UHGV virus genome: UHGV-0364294
Strand: one strand, 5' to 3'
Length of the DNA stretch: 20,105 nt
Source of the DNA: a virus
In this document: positions 996 through 19,771 of the stretch, piece by piece
Layout: each line of letters starts with the position of its first letter
Position numbering within the stretch: the first letter of the stretch is position 1
Notes under the pieces: generated by a model
What the model saw: the letters and a program-made list of their open reading frames with translations, nothing else
Told to the model about the DNA's origin: nothing
Database searches by the model: none
Program-made: the position numbers and the translations under genes

Positions 996-3134
996 TCATA
1001 AAATAGATTTCGTCTTTGTAACAATAACATCTACAAAATCGCCTGCAGATATAGCTGATGGTACTGTATCTGCAAGAGTAATCTTTCCTGAAGAGATGCT
1101 TTGCACATCTAATAATTTATTTTCAATCCCATCCGTATATACCAATTTGATATCACTGAGTGGAGGGTAATAAGTGATTGTTCCTTGGTATACATATATT
1201 TCACTACCTGAAATCGATTTCACTACATACCTGCCCCTTACAAGATTAATTTTGAGTTCAGATAAATCGGTTTTATAACAGGTAATTCCTGAACCAATGT
1301 TAGCCATACTAATATCAGTATCACTATAATAAGTAAGTGCTTTCCCTTGTTTTAAAGTAAAAGTATTTTTACTTTTCCTTGGTAAGGATGTGCTATTTTT
1401 GTAATATCTACCAGTAAAGCATAGCCATGAAAATGCAGTATTCACTACATTACCACCAGAATACACAGCTAAACGAATTGCACTAACTGGAACCCCTTCA
1501 TTATTAATCCTGATCTTAATGGAAGAAATATTAACAGCAGTGACATACCTATGGTTGGCAGAATCCCATTGCATAGAAGAAGTTATGGCTTCTGTTTGTG
1601 AGGTTATGACATTCCCATCTCTATCTAATGCATACAGGTAAATGCGAAACGATGCCGTATCTGCTGAGAATGTAAACATATCACCATTTCTTACTGGTAC
1701 ATCTCCAGATTCCCATAACAACCCAAAATTCCGCATAAAAGCAAACTTAGAAGAAACCAGGTGACGGATATTATATAAACCATCAACATCTGTTTGATAT
1801 GCTAATGCACCAACTTCTCCATTGTTAGCACTGGATATAAATGGGGTGTTAGCATTTAAAGAAAACAATGTTACTTCATCGGATATATTTTCCTGAATAT
1901 GAAATACTGCATTCCCCTTGCCATTATCAGTTACCTCGACATAAGTGTAAGGCGATGGATTGTATGGCTCATTTGTATACGCAGGAGATGAAAGCCATGT
2001 AGCTTCAATTGAGTTATTCCACGTATATTCACCAAAGTTAATTATCAACTGTTGGTTAGTTGGGGATGATGGATATCGTTCAAAACGAAACCCGTAGAAG
2101 TAATTGTTATCACCTCTTTGAATATCAATTTTACCTGCCCCCTCCATAGTTCCACCATAAAACTTATTGTGGTTATGATGATATGGATTATCAGCGAAAA
2201 TGATATTATTCGTACGATTCAGATAAAAATAGTTTTCATTTATCCATCCTTTCTCAACTCCAAGAAAATGAATTGTATCGACCTTTTTCAGGTTAAAGGT
2301 TGAGTATGCTATTGAATAATCCGTCGATGCCACCGAAGCATTATAATTTGCATATAACTGTAAGTAGTCGCAACGCTCAATGTTTATATGCTGCCCTTTT
2401 GCCCCGATAATACGAATATCCGGTGTCGTTTCAGATGAAATACCAGAATTTCTGATAATCGTTCCGAAGTTTTGTCTTGGGTTGTTAGGGTTTGATGCAT
2501 TCCCGCCAAGCAATACCCCTATTCCTGAGTGGGATATGGTAAAAACAGCATTGGTCATTTCGAGGCTGACATTACGAAGATTTAATGTCTCCGTAATAAT
2601 AAAATTACCTTCCGCTCGTAATGTTCTGGATGATTCTCGTGCATATTCTGCAGCCAAGATCAATGCAGATGTATCATCTGTTATACCATCGCCTTTTGCC
2701 CCCCACCCTCTTACATCACAATCGTCCCTCCACCGAGATATCTGCAATTCAGGATATTTTTTAGCTCCATCCGGGTCTTCTAATTGCTGCCGTAGTTGAT
2801 CAGGGTCATACTTCAGCACATTCGGAAAATAGAACTGCTGTGTACCATACGCATCATAAACAGCCATAGAATGGCCTTGCACAGTTACGAACTTGGCAAT
2901 CTGTCCGTTATATACCGGATATCCAGCAGCGTTAATGATGATTGGTTGCGAAACAGGAACGTGAGAGCCGTCTTCGTTCTCTATATAAACCTGAATCTGG
3001 TTTTCAGGATTTACCGGGTCAGTGTCAATTTTACCGATATAAATTTTGCCATTAGCTACGGCTTTAAAAGAACGCGCCATAGTGAAGAGTTGCGAAGGCA
3101 TGCTCACTACAACATTGGCTGTAATGTCTGTCAT
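996..3134 (-). CDS. Tailspike protein: P22 gp9-type N-terminal head-binding domain fused to a pectate-lyase-like beta-helix receptor-binding/depolymerase domain
   Basis: The N-terminus [11 protein letters not shown]...[36 protein letters not shown]...[12 protein letters not shown]...NVLKYDPDQ matches the P22 tailspike N-terminal domain as I recall it. Downstream, the motif [16 protein letters not shown] is typical of pectate-lyase-superfamily depolymerase domains. Length 712 aa. Confidence 0.9.
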
Positions 3135-3204
3135 TTAATTTGCTCCAGATACAAGGAATCGCCGCAGCATTGCCGCAGTGATGCATTATTAATCAAAAAA
3201 ATAC

Positions 3205-3217
3205 GACCACCGTGGTC
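3205..3217. promoter_or_regulatory. Mnt-operator-like palindrome (GACCAC-C-GTGGTC) in the mnt/tailspike intergenic region
   Basis: Perfect 6-bp arms around a central C; the core CCACnGTGG resembles the P22 mnt operator core (TCCAC-G-GTGGA as I recall it). Sits 65 nt upstream of the mnt ATG and 71 nt upstream of the tailspike ATG, which is on the other strand. Confidence 0.45.
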
Positions 3218-3281
3218 TTATTGAGGATGCAATCAGCAGATAATAAGATGCCGATCCACTCACAAAAGCGAGGCATCAAGA

Positions 3282-3533
3282 ATGGGAAGAGATGACCCGC
3301 AATTTAATCTGCGGCTACCTTACGAATTAAAGGAAAAACTAAAACAGCGAGCCAAATCCAATGGCCGCTCTCTTAATTCAGAATTAGTTCAGATAGTGAC
3401 TGATGCTGTATCAAAGCCATCCAAAATTTCAGGCTATCGAGACGATGCGGAACGCATCGCTGATGAGCAGTCAGAGCTTGTTAAGAAGATGGTGTTTGAT
3501 ACGCTGAAGGATTTGTACAAAAAACCCACCTGA
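3282..3533 (+). CDS. mnt: Mnt repressor (ribbon-helix-helix, Arc/MetJ superfamily)
   Basis: The 83-aa product MGRDDPQFNLRLPYELKEKLKQRAKSNGRSLNSELVQIVTDAVSKPS...YRDDAERIADEQSELVKKMVFDTLKDLYKKPT is close to P22 Mnt as I recall it (MARDDPHFNFRMP...NGRSMNSELLQIVQDALSKPS...DLYKKTT). GAGG lies 8 nt upstream of the ATG. Confidence 0.9.
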   Translation: MGRDDPQFNLRLPYELKEKLKQRAKSNGRSLNSELVQIVTDAVSKPSKISGYRDDAERIADEQSELVKKMVFDTLKDLYKKPT

Positions 3534-3549
3534 AGGTGGGTTAATTTTT
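3524..3549 (+). terminator. Intrinsic terminator after mnt
   Basis: Stem ACCCACC (3524-3530), loop TGAA (contains the mnt stop), stem GGTGGGT (3535-3541), followed by TTAATTTTT. Confidence 0.6.
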
Positions 3550-3567
3550 GCATTTACCTGGGCCATA

Positions 3568-3596
3568 TTGACTACTTATAAAATGAGATCAATATT
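3568..3596 (+). promoter_or_regulatory. Putative sigma70-type promoter for the small 3633-3812 gene
   Basis: TTGACT (3568-3573), 17-nt spacer, AATATT (3591-3596); ATG about 37 nt downstream. Judged by eye only. Confidence 0.3.
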
Positions 3597-3632
3597 TAAT
3601 CGCCCAATAACGGGTGTATGTTGAGGTATATC

Positions 3633-3812
3633 ATGGCGAAAAAACCAGGTGAAAACACAGGAAAAAACGGCGGAATATACCAAGAAGTTGGCCCACGCGG
3701 CGGTAAGAAAGACAATTTTGCAACCGTCAAGGACAACGAAAGGCTTCCACCAACAACAAAGCCAGGTCATGGCTGGGTATTGGATAAGCGAACTCCAGAC
3801 AGCAAAAAGTAA
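3633..3812 (+). CDS. Small hypothetical protein (59 aa), YjzC-like glycine/lysine-rich protein
   Basis: ATG at 3633 with GAGGT 5 nt upstream (the track ORF starts at 3618 without an RBS). Sequence MAKKPGENTGKNGGIYQEVGPRGGKKDNFATVKDNERLPPTTKPGHGW resembles the YjzC-like small-protein pattern from memory. Flanked by terminator-like hairpins on both sides. Confidence 0.5.
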   Translation: MAKKPGENTGKNGGIYQEVGPRGGKKDNFATVKDNERLPPTTKPGHGWVLDKRTPDSKK

Positions 3813-3818
3813 TAATCA

Positions 3819-3840
3819 AGCCGGGTCACTCCGGCTTTTT
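3819..3840 (+). terminator. Intrinsic terminator (possibly bidirectional) between the convergent 3633-3812 and 3826-4191 genes
   Basis: Stem AGCCGG (3819-3824), loop GTCACT, stem CCGGCT (3831-3836), followed by TTTTT. It overlaps the 3' end of the minus-strand gene. Confidence 0.6.
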
Positions 3841-4191
3841 GATATGTCGCTCGCAGAACTCAACAAGCCTGCTCATTAAGTAGCAGTAAGTCTCGTTGGC
3901 TCTTCCTGGTTCAACATCAACACCTACCCTTGAGCAGATATCGAATGCCATGTGAGCGCACTCATGGGCAATAGTAGATAGTTTGCCATTGAACACGCCT
4001 ATCACATGAAAAACACCATTCTCGCTACTCATTGTATGAGACGCTCCGTTGGCGTCCGAGTCATGCACGTCAACGCCAAGTTTTTGATGCAGGCGTTGCC
4101 ATTCTGGAAAGTCTCTACAAAACACAATTGTACCGCTCTCAAAGAGCGGAACGAGCATCTTTGGTACGTTTCCAATGTTAACTTTTTTCAT
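3826..4191 (-). CDS. Small HExxH protein (121 aa), putative zinc metallopeptidase-like (ImmA/IrrE- or SprT-like motif); function unknown
   Basis: Motif TIAHECAHMAF (hydrophobic-AHExxH). A weak RBS (AGGA) precedes the ATG at 4191; an alternative start is the Met at 4158. It occupies the sieA position between the gp16-like gene and mnt. Confidence 0.5.
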   Translation of the reverse strand: MKKVNIGNVPKMLVPLFESGTIVFCRDFPEWQRLHQKLGVDVHDSDANGASHTMSSENGVFHVIGVFNGKLSTIAHECAHMAFDICSRVGVDVEPGRANETYCYLMSRLVEFCERHIKKPE

Positions 4192-4225
4192 GGTATCCTG
4201 CGCAAAACTAAGGAGAGTTAATTAT

Positions 4226-4711
4226 ATGAAAAAATCACTGTTAATTATCCCGCTTCTGCTGGCTGGGTGCGCAAAAGTAAGCGACTATCAGGCAAGTTGC
4301 GAGCAACGCTATCCAAAGCTTAGCGATATGGCTAATTGCCTTGATGCCAGCTTGAAGAACGACTCTCGCATGGCATCAGCACCAACACCTAAGCTGTATG
4401 TCCTTGCTGCGAAGATGCTCGGGCAAGGTGTCGATGAAGGCAAGATAAGTGACACACAGGCAAGACTTGAACTTCAGAATCTTTATGTTCAATTACAAAG
4501 CCAAGAACAAGCACAACAAATAGCACAAAGCCAAGCATTCCAGCAGGCTTTATTGAATTATCAGGCTGTAAACACAATGCAAGCGATCGAGCAAAAAGCG
4601 CGCCAGCCTGTTATAACTCAACCTTACCCAACACGCGTTGACACATATACAAACTGCAATTCAGGATTTGGAAACACGGTAACATGCAACAGTAGCAGTA
4701 ATATCAGATAG
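4226..4711 (+). CDS. Phage-encoded secreted lipoprotein (161 aa) with a Q-rich predicted coiled-coil segment; candidate superinfection-exclusion or lysogenic-conversion protein
   Basis: ATG at 4226 preceded by AAGGAGAG (4210-4217). The N-terminus MKKSLLIIPLLLAGC has a signal peptide and lipobox (LAGC). The track ORF start at 4175 lacks an RBS. Confidence 0.65.
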   Translation: MKKSLLIIPLLLAGCAKVSDYQASCEQRYPKLSDMANCLDASLKNDSRMASAPTPKLYVLAAKMLGQGVDEGKISDTQARLELQNLYVQLQSQEQAQQIAQSQAFQQALLNYQAVNTMQAIEQKARQPVITQPYPTRVDTYTNCNSGFGNTVTCNSSSNIR

Positions 4712-4724
4712 TTATATCTTATTT

Positions 4725-6572
4725 TTATTGCTGTTCTGCTGTAATTTGGCTTGAAAGTATAGGGCGTATCGCATTTGCAGCATTATTTAGCGCTCTTTCA
4801 TAGGCTGGTGTTCCTGCTTTGGTGTTTGCCAAACGTAAGAGAGCATTCCTTGCTGCTTTTGACTCATACAAGCGCATCATTGCACCGAAACCAGCCTCAA
4901 GCCCCATTGATACGCCAAGAGTCGCAGTTGCGCCAATCGTCCTTATCCTGTTGGCTTGCGATTGCCCCGTCTGAGTTACTACATTTGCGGTGTCTGACCT
5001 TGCTGTTTGCTGTAGAACTTCATGAAGAGAATCAAGCTCTTTCATGTGCTTTCCAGAAAAAATAGTGTTGTAAATTTCACCGCCTGACTGAGATTTCAGC
5101 TTATTAACTTCAGTGATGAACTTGGCTGGAGAGTCACCGGCCTTTTCCGCTATTTTGCTGACATAAGCTGCACGCATAGCATCTTTCCCTTTATTATCCA
5201 ATGCGCTCCAGATTCGTTTCACGTCAGATGGTTTTCTGCTTAATACAACGGTATTTATAAGTTCAGGACTGGCTTCACTGCTTGCCTTGTTGAGCTTGTT
5301 AGCAATGTTTTTATTAAGCACCTTATTATAAACGTTTGCATAATCGGAATTTGCTTTAAGGTATTTTGCTGCGTCTGATGCACCGAGGTTTTTTGCAACT
5401 GCGTTACGAAGATCTTTTGACATTGCATTCTCTACCATATTGGTAGCTGCTTTTGCCTGGTTTGGGAAGACCATAGCATCTCCCTGAACATTAGATCTAA
5501 ATGCTGTTCTGTGCTGACGCAAGAGATCAAACGTAACATCCAAATCAGTTGCAGGGTTTGCTAATTCTTCACGTAGGTTACGCAAGGATGTAAGCAGGCT
5601 TTGATTGGCAGACGTCCCAAGCCGTTCCTGTCTTGCGATCGCTGTATTCAGAGCATTCATGGTATTTGTGGTATCAACTGCGGCATTACCCATTTTATTG
5701 GTGACGTCATTGATAACAGCGCCAGCGGCATCCTTCCGCCCCCTTAACGTGGTGGTAAGAGATTTCACCACATCATCAGGGTTGTACTCACCAAAACGGT
5801 CAAAATAATTACTTACCAGCTTACTACGCGTTGCATATTGCTCCGCTCGCTTTGAGCCTGTCCCGAGCAAAGCCCCCTCGGCATCCTGAGTTAGGCCGCG
5901 AGTGAAAGCATTTTTCGGCGGGATAACATCAGATGTCATTGGTGTCACGCCCATCGATTCTGATGTGGCAATTTTCTTCGCCACTTCTGGCGCAATATCA
6001 CCTTTTATAGCCGTTATTCCACGCCCTATTCCCTTTGCTGCTGCGGAAAGAACCCCCTGAGCGGCAAGGTTAACTCCGGCATTTTTAGCTGCATTTTGTG
6101 CGAAATCGCCTTTCTGATTTGCGGCCTCTGCCAGTGATCCAATAGCCATGCTTCCTGCCGTTCCAACTCCTGGAACTAAATACCCGCCAATTGTTTCTCC
6201 AGCTTGCGCATAAGGGTCTGTTGGTCGATCGACTGGACGATAGACATCGTCCAAAACCTTGGGGCCACCAAGCCCCTGGCTGATTGCATTAATCAGACTT
6301 GCGCCGCCCTGCAATACGTCAAATGGTATGTTTACCAGACCACGACCAGCCTGTTCCGCAATTTGCCCTGCACTTTGACCACCAGTGAGCCAATCGCCAG
6401 CTTGTTGCATCAATGATGGTTCTTCCCGTGTTGGTGCATTATTGGCCTGATTAACTGTTTGTTGCTGAACAGCCTGACCAGCAAAATACTCATCAATGGC
6501 GGTGCCAATATCTTCGGTGCTCGTACCATCAGGAAAGGTAAATGTCTTACCGTTTGCAGTTACTTTCATCAT
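4725..6572 (-). CDS. Ejection (internal/E) protein, P22 gp16-like
   Basis: 615 aa (P22 gp16 is about 609 aa); last gene of the ejection-protein block; Ala/Gly/Gln-rich; 4-nt ATGA overlap with the upstream gene. Confidence 0.75.
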
Positions 6573-7975
6573 TCCACCGTAAATTGAATGCCTGATTTTG
6601 AGGTATATGATCCAACCTGATTCCGTGGTTCTCCTGAAGGTGTCGAATCTTGTGCTGGCGCTGCGTCAGTATTCATTGACATATACCGCTTAACGGCACT
6701 CCCCAATGATTCACCTTTTTTAACATCCAACCCCAATATCTGACCGCCATTACGCGATTGTCCAGGGTTGCCATTCGCGCTCATCCACTCAGCTTTAAAC
6801 TCATTAAACTGCGCGTTTCGTCGCTCAAGGTTTGCCATTGCATCAAGCCATCTTGCGACCGTCTCAGGGTTATCCATGTCAGTTGGCGCACCCTGTCGAA
6901 CGATCTCAACGTCTTTATCCGTTGCTGGGCCGGGAGGTAGGAATTTAAGAACCTGACTGTTAACAAGGGCATTTTGGCGAATGCGCAAATCACGCAATGT
7001 CGTATCGCTTCCGGTAAGTTTTGCGAACATGTTCTGTGCGTTACCGAACAAGCCGGTCGTTGGTTTTTCTGCTCTGAACTGTTGAGCAAGCGCACTCATG
7101 GAATTGGCTGAGTTTGATGATGCTGTGGCATTGTTTACAGCCGTCTCGATGCCTTTTTCCATGTTTACTGACAGCTTAGGTGCTTCGCTAATCAACTGCT
7201 GAGCCTTTTCCTGCGCTTGCTGCATCTTAAACCCGAACTCTTGCTGATCCAGAGCCAAGCGTTGTGCTGCGATATTGTGCCCAGTCATTGCTGACTGATA
7301 GGAAAGGTTTTGCCCTCTCGCCTGAAGTGCTTCACCAGCCTGATTGCTGCGGATTGTCTCTGCCAGCCCGCCTCGGTCAATCTCACGACCAGCCATCTTG
7401 TCCTGAACATTGAAGTAATCAATCGGACCAAGAGCAGCCATTCCAAGGTGATCAACAAACTCACCAAATCCTGAAGGATTCTGCTGATACATCTGAGCAA
7501 CGCTGTTAGGGTCAACACCGACGCGAGTCAGTTCCTTGGCGTTGTTTTGCAGCCATGATTGCATTGCTTCTGGAGACGATGACGCAAGGCGTGCGCCAGC
7601 CGCTAAGGTGCCGATAGAATTACGCTGCTCTTCATCAATGAATCCCATGCCTTTACGAACGGATTCAATCTGGTCTGGATATTGAGTAGCCAACTTACGC
7701 AAAGCACCGCGATCACCAGACGCATAAGCATTAGCGTACGCCTGCTGAAATTCTTTCTGCCGCTGAGCCTGCTTTTCCTGCTGAAACACCCCCGCAATAC
7801 CAGAAAGACCTTGCAAAGCTGTCAGCCCAACATTGTTAGCGCCTGAACGCTCAATATCATTGTTCTGCCTGATAAGCTGAAGCGTGTTGCCGATGTCATT
7901 TACGCTCGGAGCGTTTGAGTTGACACCACCGATACCAGCCAACAATCCGCCATTTGTTCCTTGCCAAGTAGCCAT
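6569..7975 (-). CDS. Ejection protein, P22 gp20-like
   Basis: 468 aa (P22 gp20 is about 471 aa); position between the gp7-like and gp16-like genes. Confidence 0.75.
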
Positions 7976-7984
7976 GATTACCCC

Positions 7985-8680
7985 TTAAAACAACGATCCA
8001 AGCAGGCCAAGTCCGCCGCCAATTGCCGCACCTAATCCAGTGCCAAGTCCTGGAACAATAGAGCCAAGAGCAGCGCCAGTCATAGCCCCTGAAGCTCCTC
8101 CGCTAATTGCTGTCTGAAGGCCTGATGGTTTATTGGCATTAGCAGCGGCAAGAGCTGCGCTTTGCTGTGCAATGCTGCTCATGTTGTTGGCGTACGTCTG
8201 CCCGGCGTTTGCCTGACCTTGCAGAGCACCAAGCCCAACGTTTGCCAGATTGTTGTAATTGCTCATCTGATTTGATAACCAAGACTGACCGAGTGTCGGC
8301 GCGATCGTAGCCAGTTGATTGCTTGTGGCTGTCGAACCAAGTCCACCCGTCGCCTCCGCAGCAGCAAGACTCTGGTAACGAGCCTGCCCTGCAAGGTCTT
8401 TATACTGCTGAGAGTTGTAATACTGATTAAGTGCCTGCCCCTGACCTTCTAAACTGGAAAGGCTCTGAAGCTGGTTAACATACTGCTCCGCAAGAGGCGT
8501 GAACTGAGCAAGGTTTTTCATGATCGTCTGCCACTGCTGATTTTGCAGGTCTGCAGCATACTTCTGGGCTTCTGCTGCATACTTTGCGCTTTTATCAGAA
8601 CTGCCACCTTTCCCGCCTTTTTCAGGGCAATAAGGTTCCTCGCCGCGCAGTTTTCTGCCCAGCTTAAATGCATATAACAT
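7985..8680 (-). CDS. Ejection protein, P22 gp7-like
   Basis: 231 aa (P22 gp7 is about 229 aa); Gly/Ala-rich C-terminus; position. Confidence 0.7.
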   Translation of the reverse strand: MLYAFKLGRKLRGEEPYCPEKGGKGGSSDKSAKYAAEAQKYAADLQNQQWQTIMKNLAQFTPLAEQYVNQLQSLSSLEGQGQALNQYYNSQQYKDLAGQARYQSLAAAEATGGLGSTATSNQLATIAPTLGQSWLSNQMSNYNNLANVGLGALQGQANAGQTYANNMSSIAQQSAALAAANANKPSGLQTAISGGASGAMTGAALGSIVPGLGTGLGAAIGGGLGLLGSLF

Positions 8681-8682
8681 GG

Positions 8683-9141
8683 CTATCTCCCGTGATTCAG
8701 GAAGTCGATTAGTTCTTCGCGTGTGGCGCTGTAAAACGTCACGTCATCCACGCCTTTAAAGTATTTCTTGATGGTTCCTACACGATTAAGGCCAATCATT
8801 GCGCAGTACATCTGCCCGTGGCGGAATTTGCGTGCAGCGAACGATGTGACACACTGAACAGTGGTGTTAGTCAGAATGTATCGCCAGAACGCCAGCCCGA
8901 TTTCCTTGCTGAATCCACGAACCTCTGGCAGGTACATGGCGTGGCAATCAAAGGTCAAAGGCTGAATCTCCTGATAGTAAACAATGCCGCCGAACTGCCC
9001 GTGCACGTTCACCTCGAAGTAACGGCATTCAGGCTTGTAGTCGTATCCATCACCGTTGTTGCTCCCGGCAATAATGTCAGGGTGATTTCCGACTGCTTCG
9101 ATCAGGTCGATGTTTCGCGTTGGGTTGAACTGAATCATCAC
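8683..9141 (-). CDS. P22 gp14-like protein (positional homolog, virion assembly/ejection-associated)
   Basis: 152-aa ORF directly downstream of the tail needle gene (start overlaps the needle stop), upstream of the gp7-like gene, as in P22. Confidence 0.55.
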
Positions 9142-10091
9142 TGCTCCGCGATTATCTTGATGGTTGTGGCAGTAAACGCCGCCACATTTGACTGGATGGT
9201 TAACGTACTGCCATTTGTGGCAAGAAAGCCGTCTTTATCCACGCTGAAGAACGTAGCTAACAGGATGTTATCGGTTGTTGTCGCCGAGTTGCGACTGCTT
9301 ACCAGTGTGTCAGGAACAGATCCGGAAAAGGTTAGCTGCATTGACCTGTTTGCGGTTCCGCTGGGCCACGTCCCGACAATCGACAGCTTGAAGAACAGGG
9401 TTTTGTTCTCGTTGAAAACAACCATCTTGTTGTTATCAGTATCGAAGAATGGTGCCAACGTCCCGGATGACGGCGTGAGCGTTTTCAGCAGGCTAACAAG
9501 GTTGGTCGGCGCTGTTGGAATGGTTACCGATACTCCTGAGTAAACAACCTCTGATTTCTTGCGCGTGGTGGCATACTCAAGCGCAGATATTCTTGTTGAG
9601 TGATCACCAACTGTGCTTTGTAGCGTCGAAATACTTCCCTCTGCCGCTGTGAGCCTGGTATCAAGTGCGTTGATATCGGTTGTATTCTGAGTTATTCGCG
9701 CATCATGGTTTGCTAACTCAGATTCATTGGCAGCAATTCGCGTCTCGTGATCAGCCAGCTCTGTTTCGGCAGCCGTAATCCTTGTTTCATGATCTGCAAG
9801 AGTGCTTTCCGCTGCTGCGATTCTATGTTCATGATTGACGAGAGTTGCTTCAGCAGCAGCAATTCTGGATTCATGGTCTGCAAGGGTGACATCCTGCTCA
9901 TCATTCTTCACCTGTGCATCATAAGCTCCCTTCCCTGCTTCGTTGGCCTTGTTAGCCACGTTACCAACATCAGTACCCTGTGCGATAACGTACAGCAGAT
10001 ATGACTGCGAGAAGATATTGCGTGGAAGGACTGATGTGTCGAGTCGTGTAGCCTGAATGATTACCGGCTCATTGAGATTCGAATCAGCCAT
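9138..10091 (-). CDS. Tail needle (P22 gp26-like) with central coiled-coil repeats and an extended beta-rich C-terminal domain
   Basis: The real start is the ATG at 10089-10091 (TAATG overlap with the gp10-like stop). [43 protein letters not shown]...[14 protein letters not shown] matches the P22 gp26 N-terminus as I recall it. 317 aa versus about 233 aa in P22. The track ORF of 351 aa is over-extended. Confidence 0.85.
9636..9887 (-). repeat. About six imperfect tandem 42-nt repeats encoding 14-residue (two-heptad) units of the tail-needle coiled coil
   Basis: Protein repeats [14 protein letters not shown] / [14 protein letters not shown] / [14 protein letters not shown] / [14 protein letters not shown] / [14 protein letters not shown] / [14 protein letters not shown]; the 42-nt periodicity is visible in the DNA. 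Confidence 0.7.
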
Positions 10092-11509
10092 TACTCGATC
10101 CTTATCTGGCAGCCAGACAGAGTGACAGGTGACTTCGTGATAACGCGCAATTTGAAGCCGACATTTTTCCTGATGCGCCCGACTCGCTTCCACAAAACAC
10201 GCTTGTCGTAAACGAACGGTTCATTCTGCTCAATCATCTGCTCACGACCGTAATTGATGCCATCAGTGGTTGCCGAGAGGAACAGGCGGTCGGCGTACTG
10301 AGCGACCCCCGTCGATGATTCCACCTCCAGATCAAAGCATCTGGCGTTATCTGCTTTGAAGAGTGGAGTAAACAGCAGGTGTTCTTGCTGTAGCCCATAC
10401 TGGCTGCTGATGTCGAACTGCAATTTTCCGGTCACGGACTCCAGCTTATCGCCGCACGTTATCTGATTGCCTTCGTAAATGAAGTCGATAGCGCGGTACA
10501 CATCGTCATACAGGCCTGTTTTCAGCACACACCATTGCGGACCATTGGCGCTTGAAGATGCGTCGTACACAAGGACGTGACGCGAAAGATGGATAATCAG
10601 CAACTCATGAGCATCAAACCGCAACGATTCCATCACACCATCAGCCAGTTCATCAGCAGTGTAGGAGCGGAGGATTTTCTCAATGCTCGCGCTGGCGATT
10701 GGTGATACCTGACCGGAGCCGATGATGTATACAGACGGAGCACCTGTTGCCGGATTGCTGATAAACGCATAGGAATCAGCAAACGGCGTTTTGCAGTAAG
10801 TTCCGGCAATGCCTTTCTGCACCATCAGTGATGGCTGTGCGACATACAAAGCGGCACCAACGGTGGTTGCCCCAGTCAGGGAAAAATATTCAATCGTCGA
10901 TGAACCAAAGCAGACGATGAAGTCTCGCCATGTTCCGATGCCGAGGATACCGTCCGGCTGCGATTCTGCGCGATATTGTGCGCTGTAACGGTCAGGATGC
11001 GATTCGTCTTCAAGGTCAGTGATAAACCATGAATCCGTGCCGTCTTTTGACCACGCATAACGCCCACGTAAACGCGTAATGTCGCGAACCGAACCTAACT
11101 CATACTGAGTGAATCCGCTGTCTGTAGGCCAGTTTGAGACTGTTTTAACCGTTCCATCATAGCGATACTCGACCAGTTGACCATTAACGCCTACCGCCTG
11201 AGATGTTCGACCATGCGCCATTGATACGCGACCACTTCCGGCAACATCACCGACCTCGCTTTCGCCCTTATACAACTTGCCACCGCAAACGCGATAAACA
11301 GCATTCTGCGCCATGTTGTACTCGACACCGCGCGATACACCATTCACATCAGAGCGTTTGGCAATGCCAGGGAATGAGCGAAGATATCCACTGCTGTTGA
11401 GGATTTCTTTGGGGGTTGCCAGCATATTCACTGGCAGATAGTCGATATAGTCGGCGTTTCGAAAGTCTTTGCCGACACCTTTCATAAGCGGAAGTTGCTG
11501 AATCGGCAT
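10091..11509 (-). CDS. Tail accessory/hub protein, P22 gp10-like
   Basis: 472 aa (same as P22 gp10); position between the gp4-like gene and the tail needle. Confidence 0.8.
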
Positions 11510-12009
11510 TATTCGCTCCCGTTATCGCAAGGTTCCTTTCGCTGGAAGTAATTCCAACCGTTCCACTTCGCCAACTGGTTACCACTACCAACAGGCATAC
11601 GGTTTGGATAACCGGACTTACATTTAGCGGCTTTTGCTCTGTCCATTGCAGACAGTTTGACGAGTCTCTCTTTCCCGTATCTGGCAGTGGTTATAAGTTT
11701 TGCAGACGCTTCCAGCGCATAATCCGGAGCAATGCGGCAGGCAAGGTTGAAAATGACGGCATTGATAGCGTTATTTGATAAACCGTGCTCATCGCCCGGA
11801 TCTGGAGCGACATCTGCATCAGCGAAAATGTAGCCAACGTTGATACCAGGTGACACATCACCGCCAAGCCATTCAGCCATCATCATTTCAAGGTCGTTGA
11901 CGCCGTCTTCCATAGACTGCGGTTCGACATCGGTTAACGTGGCATTTGATGCCACACCGAGCTTACGTAATGCCGCAAGAACTAAATCACCCTTCGTTGT
12001 CAGGTTCAT
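11509..12009 (-). CDS. Tail accessory (head-completion) protein, P22 gp4-like
   Basis: Start at 12007-12009 with AAGGCGG 7-8 nt upstream. [33 protein letters not shown]...[14 protein letters not shown] matches P22 gp4 as I recall it. The 196-aa track ORF has an N-terminal extension with no RBS. Confidence 0.85.
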
Positions 12010-12235
12010 CTGCTGCCGCCTTAGGTTTTCGACCAGGCTTTTTACGCTGTTTTTCTTCTGGCTCTGGCTCTGGCTCTGGCTCTGGCTCTGCAACATCATT
12101 CAGAAGATTATCAGGATGTGCAAACCAGCCAGCATCCAGATATTCCTGAAGCTCTTCGGCTTTCACGATTTCAAAGTCGTATCCAACGCCTTTCCATTTC
12201 TTCATGTCGCCATGACGAAAGATCATGTGTGTCAT
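11987..12235 (-). CDS. Small hypothetical protein (82 aa) with a (EP)n linker and a basic C-terminal tail; overlaps the gp4 start by 23 nt
   Basis: ATG (MTHMIF...) preceded by GGAGA with 5-nt spacing, directly after the coat-distal hairpin. The product contains [12 protein letters not shown] followed by [11 protein letters not shown]. No homolog recognised. Confidence 0.4.
12061..12090. repeat. Perfect hexanucleotide tandem repeat (GCTCTG)x5
   Basis: Read directly from the sequence; encodes (EP)n in the small-ORF frame and (SQ)n in the gp4 frame. Confidence 0.95.
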
Positions 12236-12249
12236 GCTTGTCTCCAGAT

Positions 12250-12271
12250 AAAAAAGGGAGCCGAAGCTCCC
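12250..12271 (-). terminator. Intrinsic terminator/attenuator-like hairpin immediately downstream of the coat gene
   Basis: Minus strand reads GGGAGC-TTCG-GCTCCC followed by TTTTTT (GC-rich 6-bp stem, tetraloop, T6), 8 nt after the coat stop codon. Confidence 0.55.
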
Positions 12272-12279
12272 TCTGGTTA

Positions 12280-13575
12280 TCACGCAGTCTGGTTAGGCAG
12301 ACCAACACCAATTGCCTCTGGTCGTACAGCACATGCTGAATACCACACAGCAATACGGCACTTACCAGACAGAGTGTTGATATCACCCTGCGTTGCGAAG
12401 ATGCCGTTAACACCAATACCTGGAATGCTGAAGGAAGAAGTTTTCATGCCAGCAAACAGTTCATGGGTTACCGGAATCGGCTGAGACAGCAGGCGGATTG
12501 AGTCATCAGCCCAGAACACGTTAGCGGTGGTTGTTGCCACGTTCAGAACGTTTACCGGAGTGGTATTAGCAAGAGAGGTGTTTACGTTAGCGTAAGCCTT
12601 CTCTTCTTTTGTCAGTGACGCGTCATCCAGCGCAATCGGCTTCGGCGTGATTTCGATGTGAGTACTATCGATCACTCGGGTGATTGAGAAAGTCGCATCA
12701 TCAGTCAGCACGTTCTTCGCCATCTGAGACAGGAATTTCACACCAGTGAAGCTGATTTTGTCGCCGCGCTTAAATCCGGTGGTGGAGGATACGGTCACCG
12801 TTGCAACACGGTTGTCGACGTTCTCCTTGTTACCATCGGTATCAAGGGTGTATGCCTGCGGCTTAAACTTCTGCGCTCCAGACACAGTTACACCAGTAGC
12901 GGTTGACTTGGTAACTGCCGGAAGTTTCGGTGAGCGAAGAATTTCATCAAAGCCAGCAATCTGACGCTGAATAGTACCGTTGCGATACGCTTCTTCAGGA
13001 ACGCGACCGAAGATGTCACCATCTACCAGGTTGCGGCCTGCTTTGCGGTAATCGTCAGGATTCAGGAAGTAACTGATGCCCATATCGCGGTTTAGCTCAC
13101 GGGAGAACATCAGTCGCTCTGCATCAGACACAAAATCCCATCCAGACAGGCCAGTAGATGGACCAATTGCGCGGGTATCGTGAACAACAAGCGAGCCCAT
13201 TTCAGTTGCCTGTTTGGCAATTGCTGACTCAATGTTATTCGCCAGTTTTTTGGCGGATGCCTGGATGCGGCGACGGTAAGAACGCTCATCACGCAGGTCA
13301 TCTGCACGAAGCTCGAAGAAATCGTTATCCGGATCGCCCATGTTGCATTTCACGGAGAGTTCCAGAATCCCGGTTGCGTTGTCAGTTAAATCCCAGCCAG
13401 TCTGGGTTGGCGCTTCCTGCTCAACAGGCATCCACACGGTGTTGCTTGAACGCTGCATTGATTCTGCCGGAGGGGTGTATTTTGTCACTTTGGACGCCAT
13501 TGGCGTCAGGTTCTGGACGGTTTCGATGATTTCATCCAGAGCATATGTGACCAGTTGACCTTCATTTAATGCCAT
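12280..13575 (-). CDS. Major capsid (coat) protein, P22 gp5-like (HK97 fold)
   Basis: 431 aa; [20 protein letters not shown]...[15 protein letters not shown]...[10 protein letters not shown]...GVGLPNQTA matches the P22 coat protein as I recall it; TAATG overlap with the scaffold gene. Confidence 0.92.
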
Positions 13576-14486
13576 TATCGAATTCCTTTATTCAGTTGCG
13601 CCTTAAGCTTGCGGTACGTCTCTACATCCCCTTTGTTTGCTGCCGCTTCCATCTGCTTTTCAATCGCAGAGATATTTGCAGCAACAGCGTGTCCCTGAAT
13701 GGGTTCATCAGGTAACGGGGCTTCTGAAACAGGCTTTGCTCGAGGCTTGAGAGTTAAACGTTCTGACAGTCGAGTGAGTTCAATCAGCGCGGATTGCCCG
13801 TCCATCGCCAGCAACTGGCGTGTTTTCTCAGGATTAGCACCAAGGTGATACATGAGAGCAGCGGATTTCTCCGGGAAGAGGCGCATGATGTCGGCACCGA
13901 CTGCTGTCGGCACCAGTTGCATGAATGCATCCTCTTTCTCCTGATAGTCAGGGATATTGAGCTTTTCCGCTGCGTCGTAGTGCTTACGGGCTGCCTCGAC
14001 GTATTGCGCTGATTGCTGGGTGAACTCCTGAGTTTTGCGACCCTGCTCGGCGACAGCCTGGCTTCGTGCGTCCATAGCCTTGATCTGCCATTCACTGTTT
14101 GCCTGCTGGAAGGCAGCCAGTGCGCGGCTCTGGTCATAGTCGTACTTAGCCAGTGCATCTTCGGAAAGATAATCGTTAGGGTCTGGTTGTTTTGGTAACT
14201 CAGGGTTCACCCGCAGGTGCTCCGGCAACTCTCCACGCTTAACCGCTTCCATCTGCTGCTCAAGCTCACGCTGGCGTTTGCGTTCGATGCGGCGACGGGC
14301 AAATTCAGCATTAGTTGCCGGGTCTTGTTTTGGTTTCTCATCGTCTTTCAGGACAATCTCAAAGCCTTCTTCCTGACCTGCACTGTCGTTGGCATTATCG
14401 ACAACTAAGCCATCAGCAGATGCCGCTGCATGATTGCCGGGCAGGGTTAATTCTTCAGAAGCCTGAATGTCGGTGGTTTGGTCCAT
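13575..14486 (-). CDS. Scaffolding protein, P22 gp8-like
   Basis: 303 aa (same as P22 gp8); [46 protein letters not shown]... and the C-terminus ...[11 protein letters not shown] match P22 scaffold as I recall it. Confidence 0.9.
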
Positions 14487-14499
14487 GGTTAACTCTCTC

Positions 14500-16665
14500 T
14501 TATTGAGGTGTCTCGGCTACTCCGCCGGAGGGGATTTGAACTTGACGCATAAGATTCGCGAAATCCATGCGTTGTGAATGAGTCTGGTCTGCATCTTTAA
14601 GAAGCAGCTCAGCGTTAGCACGAGCATCTTTGCTGCGCTGTTGCTGGAATTGACCTACGAGCTTGAGGTACTCACGCAGTTCTGCCTGCTTGTCGAGGTC
14701 CATATTGTTGAAGATTTCTGCAATCTTCGCGGCGTTGAGTTGGTTTTGGGCTTCAACCTTGGCGGCTTCAACCTGAATCTGCGCCTGTTGGTTCTCTGCC
14801 TTGAGCAATTCAGCCTGACCTTGCAGAAGGATACCCTGCGCCTGAATTTGCTCTGCTGATGGCTGCTGCGGCTGCTGTTGAGCCTGCTGTACCATCTCCA
14901 TCTCTTCAGGTGTTTCTGGTTTCTTCAGCCCCATCATCACCAGTTGCTTGTTCGCGTACTCTCGCATCATCTCGACGCCTTTACCGTCAAGCAGCGTGAA
15001 GTATTGCAGCATCAGCATCTGGAACTCTGGAGTACCTTGCGGAACCTTGGTGAGCAACTCCTGAATCTCTGCGCGGTTCTGTTCCTTCATACTCTGGAAG
15101 GATGGTCCAACGTCTGTATAGCACTCATAGCGACCGCGAATGTCGTTGAGTGTGACCACATTGCCGGACTGGTAATCGACAACTTGCGCGTAGAGTTGAA
15201 CGTCTTTCTCGCTACCATCTTCAAGTGTCAGCGTTACATGGCGAGGAACGTCATAAATATCGTTGACCATTGAGGCATAAATCTCGCCATCACGTCGCAT
15301 TGCGGTAGCTAGGTTATCCTGAAACACGTATGTCTCAAGGTCTGCCCGCATGTTCAGTTGATTGACGGTATCGAAAGCGACCTGAGAGTTTGCTGCCTGC
15401 GCATCCACACCAAGACTAGCCACCTCTTTCACTGCGTTGGTGGCAGCCTCAAGCATGTAAGCGTTGGCTTGCGGCACTTCAGGGTTTTCCATGTAGGAGA
15501 TTGGGCCAATCGGCAGGTCGTTACCGTTTTCATCGGTCTTGTTCTGCAGATAGTACGGATAGTCATCATTTCCACCGTACATGTATTCGTAGCCTTCGAT
15601 TTGCTCAGGGAAGAAGGTCGGTTTCTTCTTCGGTGAACGAGCAACAATATCGGCGTTGAATGACATGATCATGTTACGAAGGCGCTGACCGTCTTTCGTC
15701 AGCCTTACCACTCCTTCGTAGCACTCCTTGTCACCAGCGAATGACCATTCGCCATACACTGGAACGATTGGAATATGCTCTCCGGCTATCTTCTCGCGGT
15801 CTTTCAGTATCTGCGTGCAGGTGATGATCGACTTATACACACGCCGACGCTTCACCTTGCGCTCTGCTACCTTAATGAATCCACGATTAGCCAGGTCGTC
15901 GATGACGTCTTTGATATCTTGCTGGTAATAGCTGACCGGCTCACCTGTCAGCGGGTCGCGGTAGATGAAGACCTTCTCTTTCTTCTCTTCGACCTCGTAA
16001 TACTCAGCGACGTAGACGACATCATTCGATACCCACGGAAACAGCCATGTATCGTTCGGATTCTGGAAAGATGGCAGCGTGTCAGGATCAATACCGTAAT
16101 CCTCTGCGAACTCTTTCCAGCCATTGCGTGACAAAGCGTTAATCACCGTGCAGTGCTTAGCGTCGCTCTTATCCATCTGCTTGCTGTTTGCGTCCCATAT
16201 GACGTGTGAGCAGGCCTCATGGATTGGCAGGCGTCGGATTACCTGATTGTTGCTTGTTGGATCGTTGTCTTCGTACTGCGTGACCAGACGCCATGCACCA
16301 ACGCCGGACTCTATCTGCTCACGAACGCCAACGTTAACGGCAATTTTTGCCGTGTTATGGCGCATATCAGTACGATACATCCCCATCAGCACATCGGCAG
16401 CATCAGGATTAGCACCGTCTTTTGGTCGGAAGAGAACGTCGATAGGGTTCCGGCGCATCTCTGCGACCAACTTCCTGACAACCGGGCGGACAACATCGAA
16501 TTGTCCGCGATACTGCAGGGTGGTGTAGTTTGATAGCCAGTCATCCCATTGCGACACTCGGCTAAAATACAGGTCATTTGTCGCCTCGGTTCTGGCTTCA
16601 TCGCTCGCCATCCAGTCTGCGTCAAACTTACACAGAATGGAATTGAGTCTGTTTTCGTCGGCCAT
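14500..16665 (-). CDS. Portal protein, P22 gp1-like
   Basis: 721 aa (P22 portal about 725 aa); extensive match to the P22 portal as I recall it, including the Q-rich C-terminal barrel region ending ...SGGVAETPQ. Confidence 0.9.
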
Positions 16666-18165
16666 TTAAGTTCTCCGTGCGATGGGCCTGATTGGGGCTG
16701 GTATCTTTTTCTCTTTTGGTTTTTTGATGTCGCGCATCATTTTTGCGAAGCGACGCATCATGTATGCATAGCGAACGGCGGATAGCACGTCGTCGTTAAG
16801 CTTGACGATCTTCCCGTTTTCATCACGGTGATAGAGGCGGAACTCCTCAAAGAATGGCTCACAGGTGTTGAATACTTTGAAGCGACCATCGAGCATCATG
16901 TCTCGCAATTCAGTGATGCCAGGCTCAACAGCATTACCGCCATCAGGCCATGTCGCATGCTCCTGCAACATCATAAATCCAGCGTCTGCATACTGCCCTT
17001 TGAGCTGCTCACCACCGCCCTTCTCATGCTGGTTTCCGTCATGAGGCCATGCGGTTGGCACTTTATGCGCCCATGATTTAACAGCTCCCCACGCCTGAAC
17101 GGCTGTCTTTTCTTTCGCCTTCCACACGCGTGAAACGTAGATTGTGTCTGCGTCCTTATCCCACCAAAGCTGAACCTGCGCCTGCGGGTGATCCCATCCG
17201 AAATCCATCCCGCCAATTACGTAGAAGTGATCAGGGCACTCAAACGGCTGACACTTAATCGTCTCTTCCGGTATCTGGAAGATTCGCCCGCTACCCATCG
17301 TAGGAATACCGCGAGCACGCGCCTCTCTCTCATGCTCAGGATAGGATGCGATGATTTGCTCTTTCTGCTCGTCGGTGTAGTGCTCAGCGTCATAGATGGT
17401 CATGTTGACCACTTTCTGCGACTTGCTTGGATTCTTCAGGAACTTGGTAACAACGTCAGACATCCCCATCAGCGGGGTAAACGTCAGAATTGAGAATTGC
17501 CCGTATTTGTTGGTACGGGTAAGACCTTCGCCATAAATGCTGTATGGTGGCTCTTCGTCAAACCACACGCCGTGGATTGTGTCACCCTGCCAGCGAGCAC
17601 GGCCTTGCGAGTATGGCTTGAAGTAGCAGATTGAAATGCCATCTTCAACGCCATCAGCCGTGTGATGCTTAACCAGAAGATGATCAACAAGGTTCGGAAA
17701 GAAAGGAGACTTCTTCCAGCTAATGATGTCCTCTTTCGGTATTGAACCGTAGCCCGGTTCATCATTCTCTTCAATACGACCGCACAGGATGCGTTGAGTC
17801 GTTTTGGTTACCGTCTCGTTTGTCTCGCCGCCAATCCAGAAGACAACAGGCTCATAGAAACGCTTACCTTTCCACTCACCGCCATATTTACCATCAGCAG
17901 GATAGCCTTTTGTGCCCGGATAACGCCCTGTAAGGTGAAACGCGACTTCAGCAGCACCAGTAAATGACTTACCAAGCTGGTTACCAGCCATAAAACATCG
18001 CTCTGGATAGTCATGCCCGGCGTCGATGAACTCACGCTGTTTGCTGTATGGCGTAAATTCATATAGCAGGTGTGTGTTACGGTAGTTCTCTTCTTCTTCG
18101 AGTAGCTCGAGCAATTCGATTTGCTCTTCGTCGCTCAGGTTATCAAGAATCGCGTCCAGTTCCAC
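16666..18165 (-). CDS. Terminase large subunit, P22 gp2-like
   Basis: 499 aa; [37 protein letters not shown]... matches P22 TerL as I recall it; overlaps the small-terminase gene by 23 nt. Confidence 0.93.
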
Positions 18166-18637
18166 GGTTGAATAGCTCCTTGATACGAGATCGTCGCTTA
18201 TCGCGATCTCCCTTATCAGGTGTCACGTCTTCAACTTGCGACTGCTCTTTGAGGCCCAAATCACGGGCGATGATGTTAGCGTTGAGAAGGTCAGCGGCTG
18301 CGCCAGAGAATTTCTGGTCGTAGATGATGTCTTCCGCTCGTGATGTGACGTCAGAAAAACCTTCCATTGACCGGAAGGTCCCCCATGTTTGCCTGGTGAT
18401 ATCAAGGAAGGTACACAATCCTGAAATAGTCATGGCTCGCATCTTAGGGACATTAGCCTTAATTATTTCTCCCTGATATGAAAATACCTTACCCTCCCAT
18501 AGCGGGTTATCATCAGCCCACTCGAAGTATTCACAACAAGCAGCCCACAGCGCCTCAGGCGATTCGAATTTAGGGTTTCGCCCATGACTACTGCGGGCCT
18601 CCCAAAATCGGTTGCCCTTTGGTGCTGCCATATTCAT
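18143..18637 (-). CDS. Terminase small subunit, P22 gp3-like
   Basis: [40 protein letters not shown]...[24 protein letters not shown] matches P22 gp3 as I recall it; the start may be the ATG at 18637 or at 18631. Confidence 0.9.
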
Positions 18638-18666
18638 CTCACTTAGTTGTTATTTCAGGTTGAGCA

Positions 18667-18909
18667 TCATGCTCCGGTAGTGAACAGGTCTAACGCTTCC
18701 TTAGATTTACGCACCGCTTCGAATGTGCGGATCGTGATATCCGAATTAGCGCCGCCTGACTGGAAGTGAATTTTGAATAGCTCAAGCTTCAGTTCGTCAG
18801 TGCCAATGAACTGAAATGCTTCCTCTGCGGCTGCGTTCTGGTTCATGACCAGTTTGTAAATCTCTAACTGGAATTTCTGTTCTTCAGTCATGGGAATAAT
18901 CTCTGCCAT
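18667..18909 (-). CDS. Small hypothetical protein (80 aa), positional equivalent of P22 orf80 upstream of terminase
   Basis: ATG preceded by ACGGAG; acidic 80-aa product; the position and length recall the small ORF before gene 3 in P22. Confidence 0.5.
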   Translation of the reverse strand: MAEIIPMTEEQKFQLEIYKLVMNQNAAAEEAFQFIGTDELKLELFKIHFQSGGANSDITIRTFEAVRKSKEALDLFTTGA

Positions 18910-19012
18910 TGTTGGCTCCGTTTATCCGTTAAAAGGGATATCAGTTAAGTTATCCCGTGTAGGGTATAAGCCATTATCAAAGCCACTCTGTAGGGAATGG
19001 CTTTTGTAATAA

Positions 19013-19393
19013 CTACTGTTCGCTTAGCTTCTGCTTCAGCAAGTAACCTTCGAGCATCCAGATTTTGTTTACAGCATTTTGCCGGGCAATCTTCCGACCA
19101 ATTTCTGCATCAAAGTTTTCCGTGCTTGCACAGGCACTCTCTCCGGTGACGGTGAAGCCATTCTTCAGCACCAGTACGCAGAAAGTGAGCAACTTCAATG
19201 GTGATAAATCACGATCGCCTTCTTCTGGTTTTTCCCTGCCACAATATTCGTTGCTGGAAATGGCACCATTACGTCCATCATAAGCAGTAAAGTAATGCTC
19301 GCTTTTAATCACGTCTTCGATGTGCTGCGGAGTGATTCGCGGTGCCGTTTTGCCTTTCTCAACGATTTCTTTTTCGATTTGCTGGTCGTTCAT
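19013..19393 (-). CDS. Conserved phage protein, likely Phage_gp49_66 (N4 gp49 / Sf6 gp66) family; function unknown
   Basis: 126 aa with a HYFTAYDG...LTFCVLVLKNGFTVTGESACASTENFDAEIGRKIARQNA pattern that I recall as characteristic of this family. Located between the lysis and terminase genes. Confidence 0.55.
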   Translation of the reverse strand: MNDQQIEKEIVEKGKTAPRITPQHIEDVIKSEHYFTAYDGRNGAISSNEYCGREKPEEGDRDLSPLKLLTFCVLVLKNGFTVTGESACASTENFDAEIGRKIARQNAVNKIWMLEGYLLKQKLSEQ

Positions 19394-19771
19394 AATTATG
19401 ACCCTGTGGAGTGGTTGCTTGATTAGGATGTCTTTCCATCAGTCCGCCACCACAAAGAATCTTTTTTGCCATCAGGCAGGAGGTTCATCTTTCAGTGGCT
19501 GCCAGTGTTATTTCCCCACTTACTGGCTTGGGTTGTTTCGCGGTACTGCCGTAACTGGTTGCCCAGAATAAATTCCGGTTTCATTATCAAGCCCACCCGT
19601 AGATAGGCTTTGTAATGAACCGGCTCTTATCTCAACGCCGCCCCTTACCGCGCGCCATATGCTTAACTTCAAGCATCAGCAATGAGATGTTTAATCTGGA
19701 TTCACTCCAGAAGTGATCACCACCCTGTCTACAGAGCCAGATGTGAAGGATGATGAGTAAAATTATCGCTA

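Follow-up and report, generated by a model that had tools for sequence, protein, structure and literature searches.

A conserved small late gene with a fast-changing Glu-Pro repeat between the coat and gp4 genes of P22-like phages

In phage P22, a short open reading frame (ORF), orf69 (NP_059631, 6135-6344), lies between gene 5 with its stem-loop and gene 4, and ends 17 nucleotides (nt) inside gene 4. In the Salmonella phages L (orf186, 1501-2061), ST64T, ST104, BTP1 and others, the same slot is occupied by the equivalent orf186 (PHROG 3769), which contains an additional domain, WDGH. The orf69 family (PHROG 1175) is already annotated as a hypothetical one, and our literature searches found no functional study of orf69, orf186 or WDGH. 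Phage lambda encodes its DNA-packaging chaperone, gpFI, in a similar place, namely between the capsid gene E, which likewise has a stem-loop behind it, and FII, the gene for the adaptor. In work by Popovic and colleagues (J Biol Chem, 2012), gpFI is said to be small and acidic, to have two parts and a flexible linker, and not to be a component of the virion. Here we describe the corresponding small ORF of the virus genome UHGV-0364294, studied in a window of 20,105 nt (the whole stretch of DNA analyzed, to which all coordinates refer unless another record is named), in which the small ORF, gp4 and the coat gene all lie on the (-) strand. The window most likely represents an Escherichia coli Lederbergvirus-type prophage or phage, as its positions 2900-19617 match a P22-like prophage in E. 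coli Ecol_881 with 98.3-99.8% identity.

The small ORF (11987..12235, (-); ATG 12235..12233, TGA 11989..11987) encodes 82 amino acids (aa) and is preceded by a GGAGA Shine-Dalgarno sequence, just as an earlier note prepared from the sequence had read it. This GGAGA (12241..12245, (-)) is located 5 nt 5' of the ATG and is invariant in seven phages and present in 77 of the best 80 IMG/VR loci, the other three having TGGAGA altered to ATGGAGA or TGTAGA variants. The position between the coat and gp4 genes, also given in that note, was borne out by the domains of the neighbors: a P22-type coat protein of 431 aa on one side (12280..13575, (-); PF11651, E = 1.3e-165) and the head-tail adaptor gp4, a protein of 166 aa starting with MNLTTKGDL, on the other (11509..12009, (-); PF11650, E = 2.8e-58, residues 2-160). 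The note had not recognized the protein; it belongs to the annotated hypothetical family of P22 orf69, since PHROG 1175 is matched over its full length (E = 8.9e-37, residues 1-80 versus profile positions 1-72 of 72) and P22 orf69 falls into the same PHROG (E = 4.5e-31). When 5.8 billion proteins were searched, 353 homologs were retrieved and, among the 120 closest ones listed, the first 48 and last 23 residues are near-invariant, while the linker between them differs. For codons 1-46, compared in 10 loci from seven genera (Escherichia, Shigella, Citrobacter, Buttiauxella, Kluyvera, Yersinia, and Rahnella), the ratio of nonsynonymous to synonymous substitution rates (dN/dS) was 0.115 with a dS of about 1.4, which points to strong purifying selection on the protein. 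As to its conservation in P22-like relatives, for which the note had proposed a check, the ORF is kept: it is intact in 79 of the 80 IMG/VR copies, and the sole broken one (L097, 2501-2542) carries a point nonsense mutation, TGG to TAG, at the invariant W14. All loci examined have the genes and hairpin in the order coat, hairpin, ORF, gp4, including those of the most divergent relatives (36-50% identity), in which the ORF lies between the P22_CoatProtein and P22_Tail-4 genes and overlaps the start of the latter. The profile match, the position, the residues of the N-terminal domain and a K-x-G-x-K-P-K motif all place the small ORF in the orf69 family, and it is almost certainly a genuine protein-coding late gene.

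Several gene-level searches and annotations also deserve mention. Pfam and NCBIfam gave low-complexity matches only for the small ORF (Trypan_PARP, E = 0.006; TonB, E = 0.82), and tblastn against phage GenBank records recovered only eight close relatives, owing to the short length of the query and the low-complexity filter. An alternative GTG start at 12283, used in some Joint Genome Institute (JGI) gene calls and giving a 98-aa product, was rejected, as this form would cross the coat stop codon and the hairpin, and its upstream frame is closed within one to six codons of the ATG in 5 of 14 relatives. In the records of phages APC_JM3.2 and Bas106, the small gene is annotated correctly.

The protein is small and acidic and consists of three parts, that is, a folded 45-residue 'GW' domain, an (EP)n spacer and a basic KKPG(R/P)KPK motif, in agreement with the short N-terminal domain, Glu-Pro linker and basic tail proposed earlier. 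An AlphaFold2 model built with a 13-sequence alignment has a predicted local distance difference test (pLDDT) score of about 90 over residues 1-45 and is disordered after residue 49. In this model, the N-terminal domain (aa 1-48; 12092..12235, (-)) comprises a beta-hairpin at residues 2-25 (strands 2-14 and 17-25), a helix at 26-34, the invariant GW and a second helix at 41-48; residues G9, G16, G36, W37, H40 and P41 are invariant across the family, including P22 orf69. The domain is followed by the acidic linker of 13 residues (12053..12091, (-)) and by a basic motif of 11 residues (12020..12052, (-)). The respective charges are -4 for the N-terminal domain, -7 for the linker, +7 for the basic motif and -4 for the C-terminal end, which gives -8 in total. 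Two short stretches are shared with signals or codons of gp4: at the C terminus, DEPDNEG follows from the gp4 codons that it overlaps (MNLTTKGD), and the codons for Lys-Ala of the basic motif contain the gp4 Shine-Dalgarno sequence. The K-K-P-G-(R/P)-K-P-K sequence is nonetheless kept in distant lineages despite synonymous changes (CCT/CCG, GGT/GGG/GGC, AAA/AAG), which indicates that it is selected at the protein level. Fold searches with the model returned nothing in the PDB, and its structural relatives in BFVD were uncharacterized small phage proteins only; PDB sequence searches with profiles of the N-terminal domain and of the homing-endonuclease module described below, and with the WDGH allele, likewise gave nothing meaningful.

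P22 orf69 is 33% identical to the window protein and shares with it G9, G16, G36-W37 and H40-P41 as well as a basic K-G-R-K-P-K-A, whereas its linker is the short, non-repetitive acidic PVEADDV instead of (EP)n, and its charge is close to neutral (+0.6). The phage L and ST64T orf186 and a 196-aa E. coli allele occupy the same locus, and have N-terminal domains 25-31% identical to that of the window ORF, the same KKPG(P/R)KPK tail and the same overlap with gp4; the 3' end of the E. coli allele is even common with the window ORF at the DNA level over 18 residues. Unlike the window ORF, these proteins have a WDGH domain of about 100 residues between the N-terminal domain and the tail, and only zero to two EP units. 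The composition and order of the linker and tail resemble those of TonB, in which an acidic stretch of Glu-Pro and, after it, a basic one of Lys/Pro, (EP)n then (KP)n, form an extended stiff spacer. Homology to TonB was not indicated by the NCBIfam match, which reached 9.4 bits versus a cut-off of 265 and covered a low-complexity stretch only, and the small-ORF protein, unlike TonB, is cytoplasmic, lacks both a signal and a membrane anchor, and is ten times smaller. The AT-hook (PF02178) is, like the tail, a short basic motif rich in Pro and Gly, but the window protein reads K-P-G-R-K-P-K and gave no Pfam AT_hook match at E <= 1; the canonical core, RRGRPPK, is found in a single relative (P0137), which matches Pfam AT_hook weakly (E = 0.047).

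The linker is specified by a perfect hexanucleotide repeat, (CAGAGC)5 at 12061-12090, for which Tandem Repeats Finder reported a tract at 12057-12090 with a period of 6, 5.7 copies and 100% matches, in line with the earlier description; the 18-mer (CAGAGC)3 was expected 0.00 times in shuffled sequences. What had been described as (EP)6 is, however, (EP)5 followed by E-E. The length of this tract varies widely among isolates, a point that the note had proposed to test. Seven close phages have 2, 5, 5, 5, 6, 8 and 8 units, the IMG/VR loci have from 3 to 15 perfect units, and an evenly spaced sample of complete E. coli genomes spans 1-29 units, 2 and 6 being the modes. The prediction that changes in copy number would leave both frames intact also held: over the range of 1-29 units both genes are intact in all copies that were read through, except L097. 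In particular, direct reading of the 29-unit (ECONIH6) and 20-unit (CUVET19-970) alleles showed both frames to be intact, and tract spans that were not a multiple of six resulted from one nucleotide gained or lost in an intergenic T-run outside the ORF. The automated Prokaryotic Genome Annotation Pipeline (PGAP) calls the ECONIH6 allele (416-661) an incomplete pseudogene, though its (EP)29 ORF is intact.

The tracts were also compared with their flanks. The exact 586-nt flank haplotype of the window occurs six times among 91 loci, with six different tract lengths, and other haplotypes behave alike; the Ecol_881 prophage, which matches the window at 99.8% identity along 9.2 kb, has 10 units versus 5. 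Such varied lengths on identical flanks show that copy number changes much faster than point substitutions accumulate, so that (CAGAGC)n is an in-frame coding variable number tandem repeat whose length changes far faster than its flanks. Fast change is as expected from slipped-strand mispairing of a perfect hexamer, and interrupted alleles with ES, EQ, DP, ET and EL units show older tracts decaying. The EP reading is conserved across lineages and is kept with a different codon in Yersinia, where the unit is GAGCCT instead of GAGCCA. Since the unit is 6 nt long, the outcome is length variation and not on/off phase variation, and a phase-variable contingency locus of the latter kind was rejected, as length changes from 1 to 29 units never broke the ORF or gp4.

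The reading that we favor, with a probability of roughly 0.5 for the whole, is that this conserved late gene encodes an accessory factor that serves the P22-type head/neck module without being part of the virion, and that would act as a tether. The tethering mechanism taken by itself is a tentative and rather doubtful proposal. In such a mechanism, the N-terminal domain would hold a protein partner, the basic AT-hook-like motif would hold DNA or an acidic surface, and the stiff EP rod would merely space the two, a role that would explain the tolerance of any linker length between 0 and about 58 residues. Ribosomes ending 23 nt inside gp4 may, in addition, bring about some coupled initiation of gp4 beside that from its own Shine-Dalgarno sequence. 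The closest functional analogy, by position and architecture only, would be lambda gpFI, since the small ORF likewise occupies the slot between a major capsid gene with its stem-loop and an adaptor gene. On the other hand, neither sequence nor fold similarity to the C-terminal head-binding domain of gpFI was detected in the small ORF, and lambda relies on cos packaging, which P22, a headful-packaging phage, does not use. Mass spectrometry of phage L virions gave ten known P22-type virion proteins together with Dec, scaffold and small terminase, as well as nine further phage proteins that are left unnamed in the text; orf186 is not named there (PMC8022706), which is only weakly consistent with a non-virion role.

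Several observations weigh against this reading of the gene as a tether in the head/neck module. Where orf186 is mentioned in the literature, it is with the words 'detailed function unknown', and the analogy with gpFI is one of position and architecture, with no similarity of sequence or fold found. The motif of the window protein is GRKP and not RGRP, and in many relatives it is GPKP, the core of which lacks arginine. The gp4 Shine-Dalgarno sequence partly determines the final residues of the motif. The EP tract is absent from P22 and from one Citrobacter relative. Finally, there are two allele classes, with and without WDGH and with N-terminal domains 31% identical, between near-identical coat and gp4 flanks, which argues against tight co-evolution of the protein with either coat or gp4. 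A stronger version, in which (EP)n would be a selected, hypermutable length-tuner of a head-module protein and not a neutral spacer, appears quite unlikely to us, even though the tract is kept both as EP and as a perfect repeat in at least five genera while adjacent synonymous sites are saturated.

Two other explanations turn on the junction with gp4. In one of them, the repeat would belong to gp4, which would start at 12099 and have an (SQ)n N-terminus, and the 82-aa ORF would be spurious. The gp4 frame is open upstream of its ATG (12009..12007) as far as 12099 (extension 12010..12099, (-)) and contains ATG codons, and it was correctly noted before that the repeat encodes (SQ)n in this frame and that the extension lacks a ribosome-binding site, no Shine-Dalgarno sequence being found before 12099. 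Three GenBank records are annotated in this way: in Louie (1755-2342), Dewey (555-) and IME10 (555-), gp4 is begun inside the repeat, as M(M)LQSQSQ..., and the small gene is omitted. (The record of APC_JM3.2 has its own peculiarity, as gp4 (660-) is labeled 'recombinase RmuC' there.) Yet, in 7 of 14 diverse loci, P22 among them, a stop codon closes this frame one or two codons before the gp4 ATG, and the extension has no start codon in three more of the 14. In Yersinia it would read (SL)n while EP is kept, and in the Citrobacter, Kluyvera and gut Enterobacteriaceae loci (L015, L017, and L018) gp4 is in the frame of the small ORF itself, parted from it by TAG-CAG. As an aside, amber suppression or readthrough in these three loci would yield an ORF-gp4 fusion. 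Moreover, the Pfam domain begins at residue 2 of the short form of gp4, P22 gp4 starts at the homologous MQIKTKGDL, and the short form is served by its own Shine-Dalgarno sequence, AAGGCGG (12016..12022, (-)), which falls in the small-ORF codons for K-A at a spacing of 6 nt from the ATG of gp4 and has an AAGG equivalent in every relative checked. As the extension is not conserved, the gp4 domain fits the short form and this form has its own Shine-Dalgarno sequence, the (SQ)n extension, which we judge to be untranslated, is a side effect of a repeat that is free of stop codons in all frames, and we give practically no weight to an extended gp4. The other explanation regards the ORF as a leader whose translation brings ribosomes to gp4, the peptide being largely irrelevant. 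It would fit the fact that the ORF stop codon is never farther than about 25 nt from the start of gp4, that the gp4 Shine-Dalgarno sequence is embedded in the last ORF codons, and that the C-terminal 8-10 residues are dictated by overlapping gp4 codons. The overlap, which amounts to 23 nt in the window (11987..12009, (-)), is of the same length in 79 of 80 IMG/VR loci, and is replaced by one of 17, 14 or 11 nt, or by a 3-nt gap, in other lineages. Thus, the earlier statement that the stop lies 23 nt inside gp4 was right, and the arrangement is conserved and compatible with the translational coupling proposed from it. Folding of the RNA around the gp4 start, however, indicated no special structure (z = 0.82) and no sequestration of the Shine-Dalgarno sequence, and a structure-based coupling was rejected for this reason; with its own strong AAGGCGG and no occluding structure, gp4 has coupling as an option at most. 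A leader would also not require 70-190 conserved codons or a WDGH domain, nor would it account for a dN/dS of about 0.1 with a confidently predicted fold in the N-terminal domain, or for a basic motif conserved at the protein level through synonymous changes. We therefore consider a mere leader very improbable.

The remaining alternatives accept the protein but assign it a different task. In an exhaustive phmmer search with residues 1-47 against 1.84 billion cluster representatives, we found, besides about 10 clusters of the family itself, proteins that repeat a module of 35-40 residues three to seven times (E = 4e-7 to 8e-4), with the pattern G-K-x-W-I-N-x-G-...-K-x-I-x-x-x-E-L-Q-x-Y-L-D-x-G-W-x-x-G. 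These proteins have either GIY-YIG with NUMOD3 or HNH domains, fall into PHROG 'homing endonuclease' families (655 and 314) and match PHROG 1175 reciprocally (E down to 2e-14); a profile-profile comparison with hhalign gave a probability of 96.4% (E = 1.3e-9) over 22 columns that correspond to the strand, the helix and GW. On the basis of these reciprocal matches and the hhalign result, the N-terminal domain shares a strand-helix-GW module, with the common pattern strand-K-x-x-E-L-Q-x-Y-L-D-x-G-W, with presumed DNA-binding regions in the C-terminal parts of homing endonucleases. The module had no matching Pfam family in the proteins scanned (P0130-P0145) and no solved structure in a PDB search, and it looks like an undescribed part of GIY-YIG/HNH enzymes; the AlphaFold2 model of a four-module protein (P0132), made with no alignment, had a pLDDT of 34 and was unusable for fold comparison. 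The small ORF differs from such enzymes in having the module in a single copy with a hairpin longer by eight residues. A homing endonuclease proper was rejected as an identity for the ORF, which has no Pfam nuclease domain and only this one module in common with them. A small DNA-binding protein, in which the endonuclease-type module and the AT-hook-like tail bind phage or host DNA late in infection, as a regulator, a packaging-site helper or a homing-endonuclease remnant, would be in keeping with the shared module and with the canonical RGRP of one relative. We find it improbable, because only 22 columns align, the modules of the endonucleases are basic (+2 each) while the N-terminal domain of the small ORF is acidic (-4), DNA binding by the module is itself suggested by its location only, and no nuclease domain is present at the locus. 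A somewhat different possibility is that the gene is accessory, host-interaction or counter-defense cargo lodged in the head operon, whose diversity stems from an arms race. The slot is indeed a hot spot of diversity between very conserved genes: some E. coli prophages with 98% identical flanks have in it the 196-aa allele with the same tail, in which the N-terminal domain is 31% identical and a WDGH domain (PF25311, E = 2e-39) is inserted, the Salmonella phages have orf186, and a Kluyvera prophage has an extra small gene. WDGH alone is widespread in unrelated phages of Listeria, Bacillus, Streptococcus, and Lactococcus, and both the hypervariable repeat and the BFVD relatives, all of them small uncharacterized phage proteins, would suit cargo as well. 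Nevertheless, the position of the gene is strictly conserved and its gp4 overlap persists down to 36% identity, purifying selection is strong, the gene has neither a promoter nor a terminator of its own, and late expression would be unusual for a counter-defense gene; the lack of a PADLOC match is weak evidence in the same direction, as PADLOC covers defense systems and not anti-defense genes. On balance, cargo of this kind seems unlikely.

Regarding the same slot, the extra gene of the Kluyvera prophage (L017, 2268-2504) is an ORF of 78 aa located between the coat and small genes, with a weak match to PHROG 8729 and a stop codon that overlaps the ATG of the small gene, which implies that the gap between coat and gp4 accepts additional small genes. 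PGAP splits E. coli WDGH copies into two 'pseudogene' fragments although the 196-aa frame is open.

Between the coat stop codon and the Shine-Dalgarno sequence of the small ORF lies a terminator-like hairpin (12247..12274, (-)), GGGAGC-UUCG-GCUCCC followed by U6, with a calculated free energy of -21.1 kcal/mol and a z-score of -3.3. It is conserved in all relatives examined, including P22 and a metagenomic relative with 36% identity; the P22 record annotates it as a stem_loop 'similar in location to stem-loops in phage HK97 and phage lambda', and the phage L record as a terminator. The hairpin probably sets the ratio of coat to downstream expression or protects the 3' end of the coat mRNA. No sigma-70-like promoter was found in the region 11400-12700, so the ORF is expressed as part of the antiterminated late transcript, presumably less strongly than coat. 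The same region contained no RNA family from Rfam. A moron was also considered and rejected, as the ORF has no promoter of its own, has the only terminator-like site upstream of it and overlaps gp4. Elsewhere in the window, the tail-needle gene (gp26-like, 'tail needle knob'; ORF 9138..10193, (-)) contains a tandem repeat of 42 nt (14 aa) at 9765-9888, present in three copies with 68% identity and encoding ADHETRI(A/T)AAE coiled-coil units.

As far as we found, what is new is the extent and speed of the (EP)n polymorphism, the conservation of EP across genera and the link of the N-terminal domain to a homing-endonuclease module. For annotation, the results correct several GenBank phage records in which the small gene is missing and gp4 has been assigned a false (SQ)n N-terminus, and they indicate that PGAP mis-flags long-repeat and WDGH alleles as pseudogenes whose frames are open. 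The repeat could act as a high-resolution typing marker for these prophages, and the natural alleles of 0 to 29 units on identical backgrounds are ready material for probing the role of the protein. P22 is one of the best-studied assembly systems, and yet a gene of the orf69 type sits within its head/neck operon. If the length-tuner version were true, slippage would alter the reach of the protein from 0.6 to about 17 nm and its charge by -1 per unit versus the +7 motif, which would affect bridging of DNA to capsid, portal or terminase, escape from host sensors, or the amount of gp4, and would mean that a contingency-type repeat resides inside the morphogenetic operon of a temperate phage.

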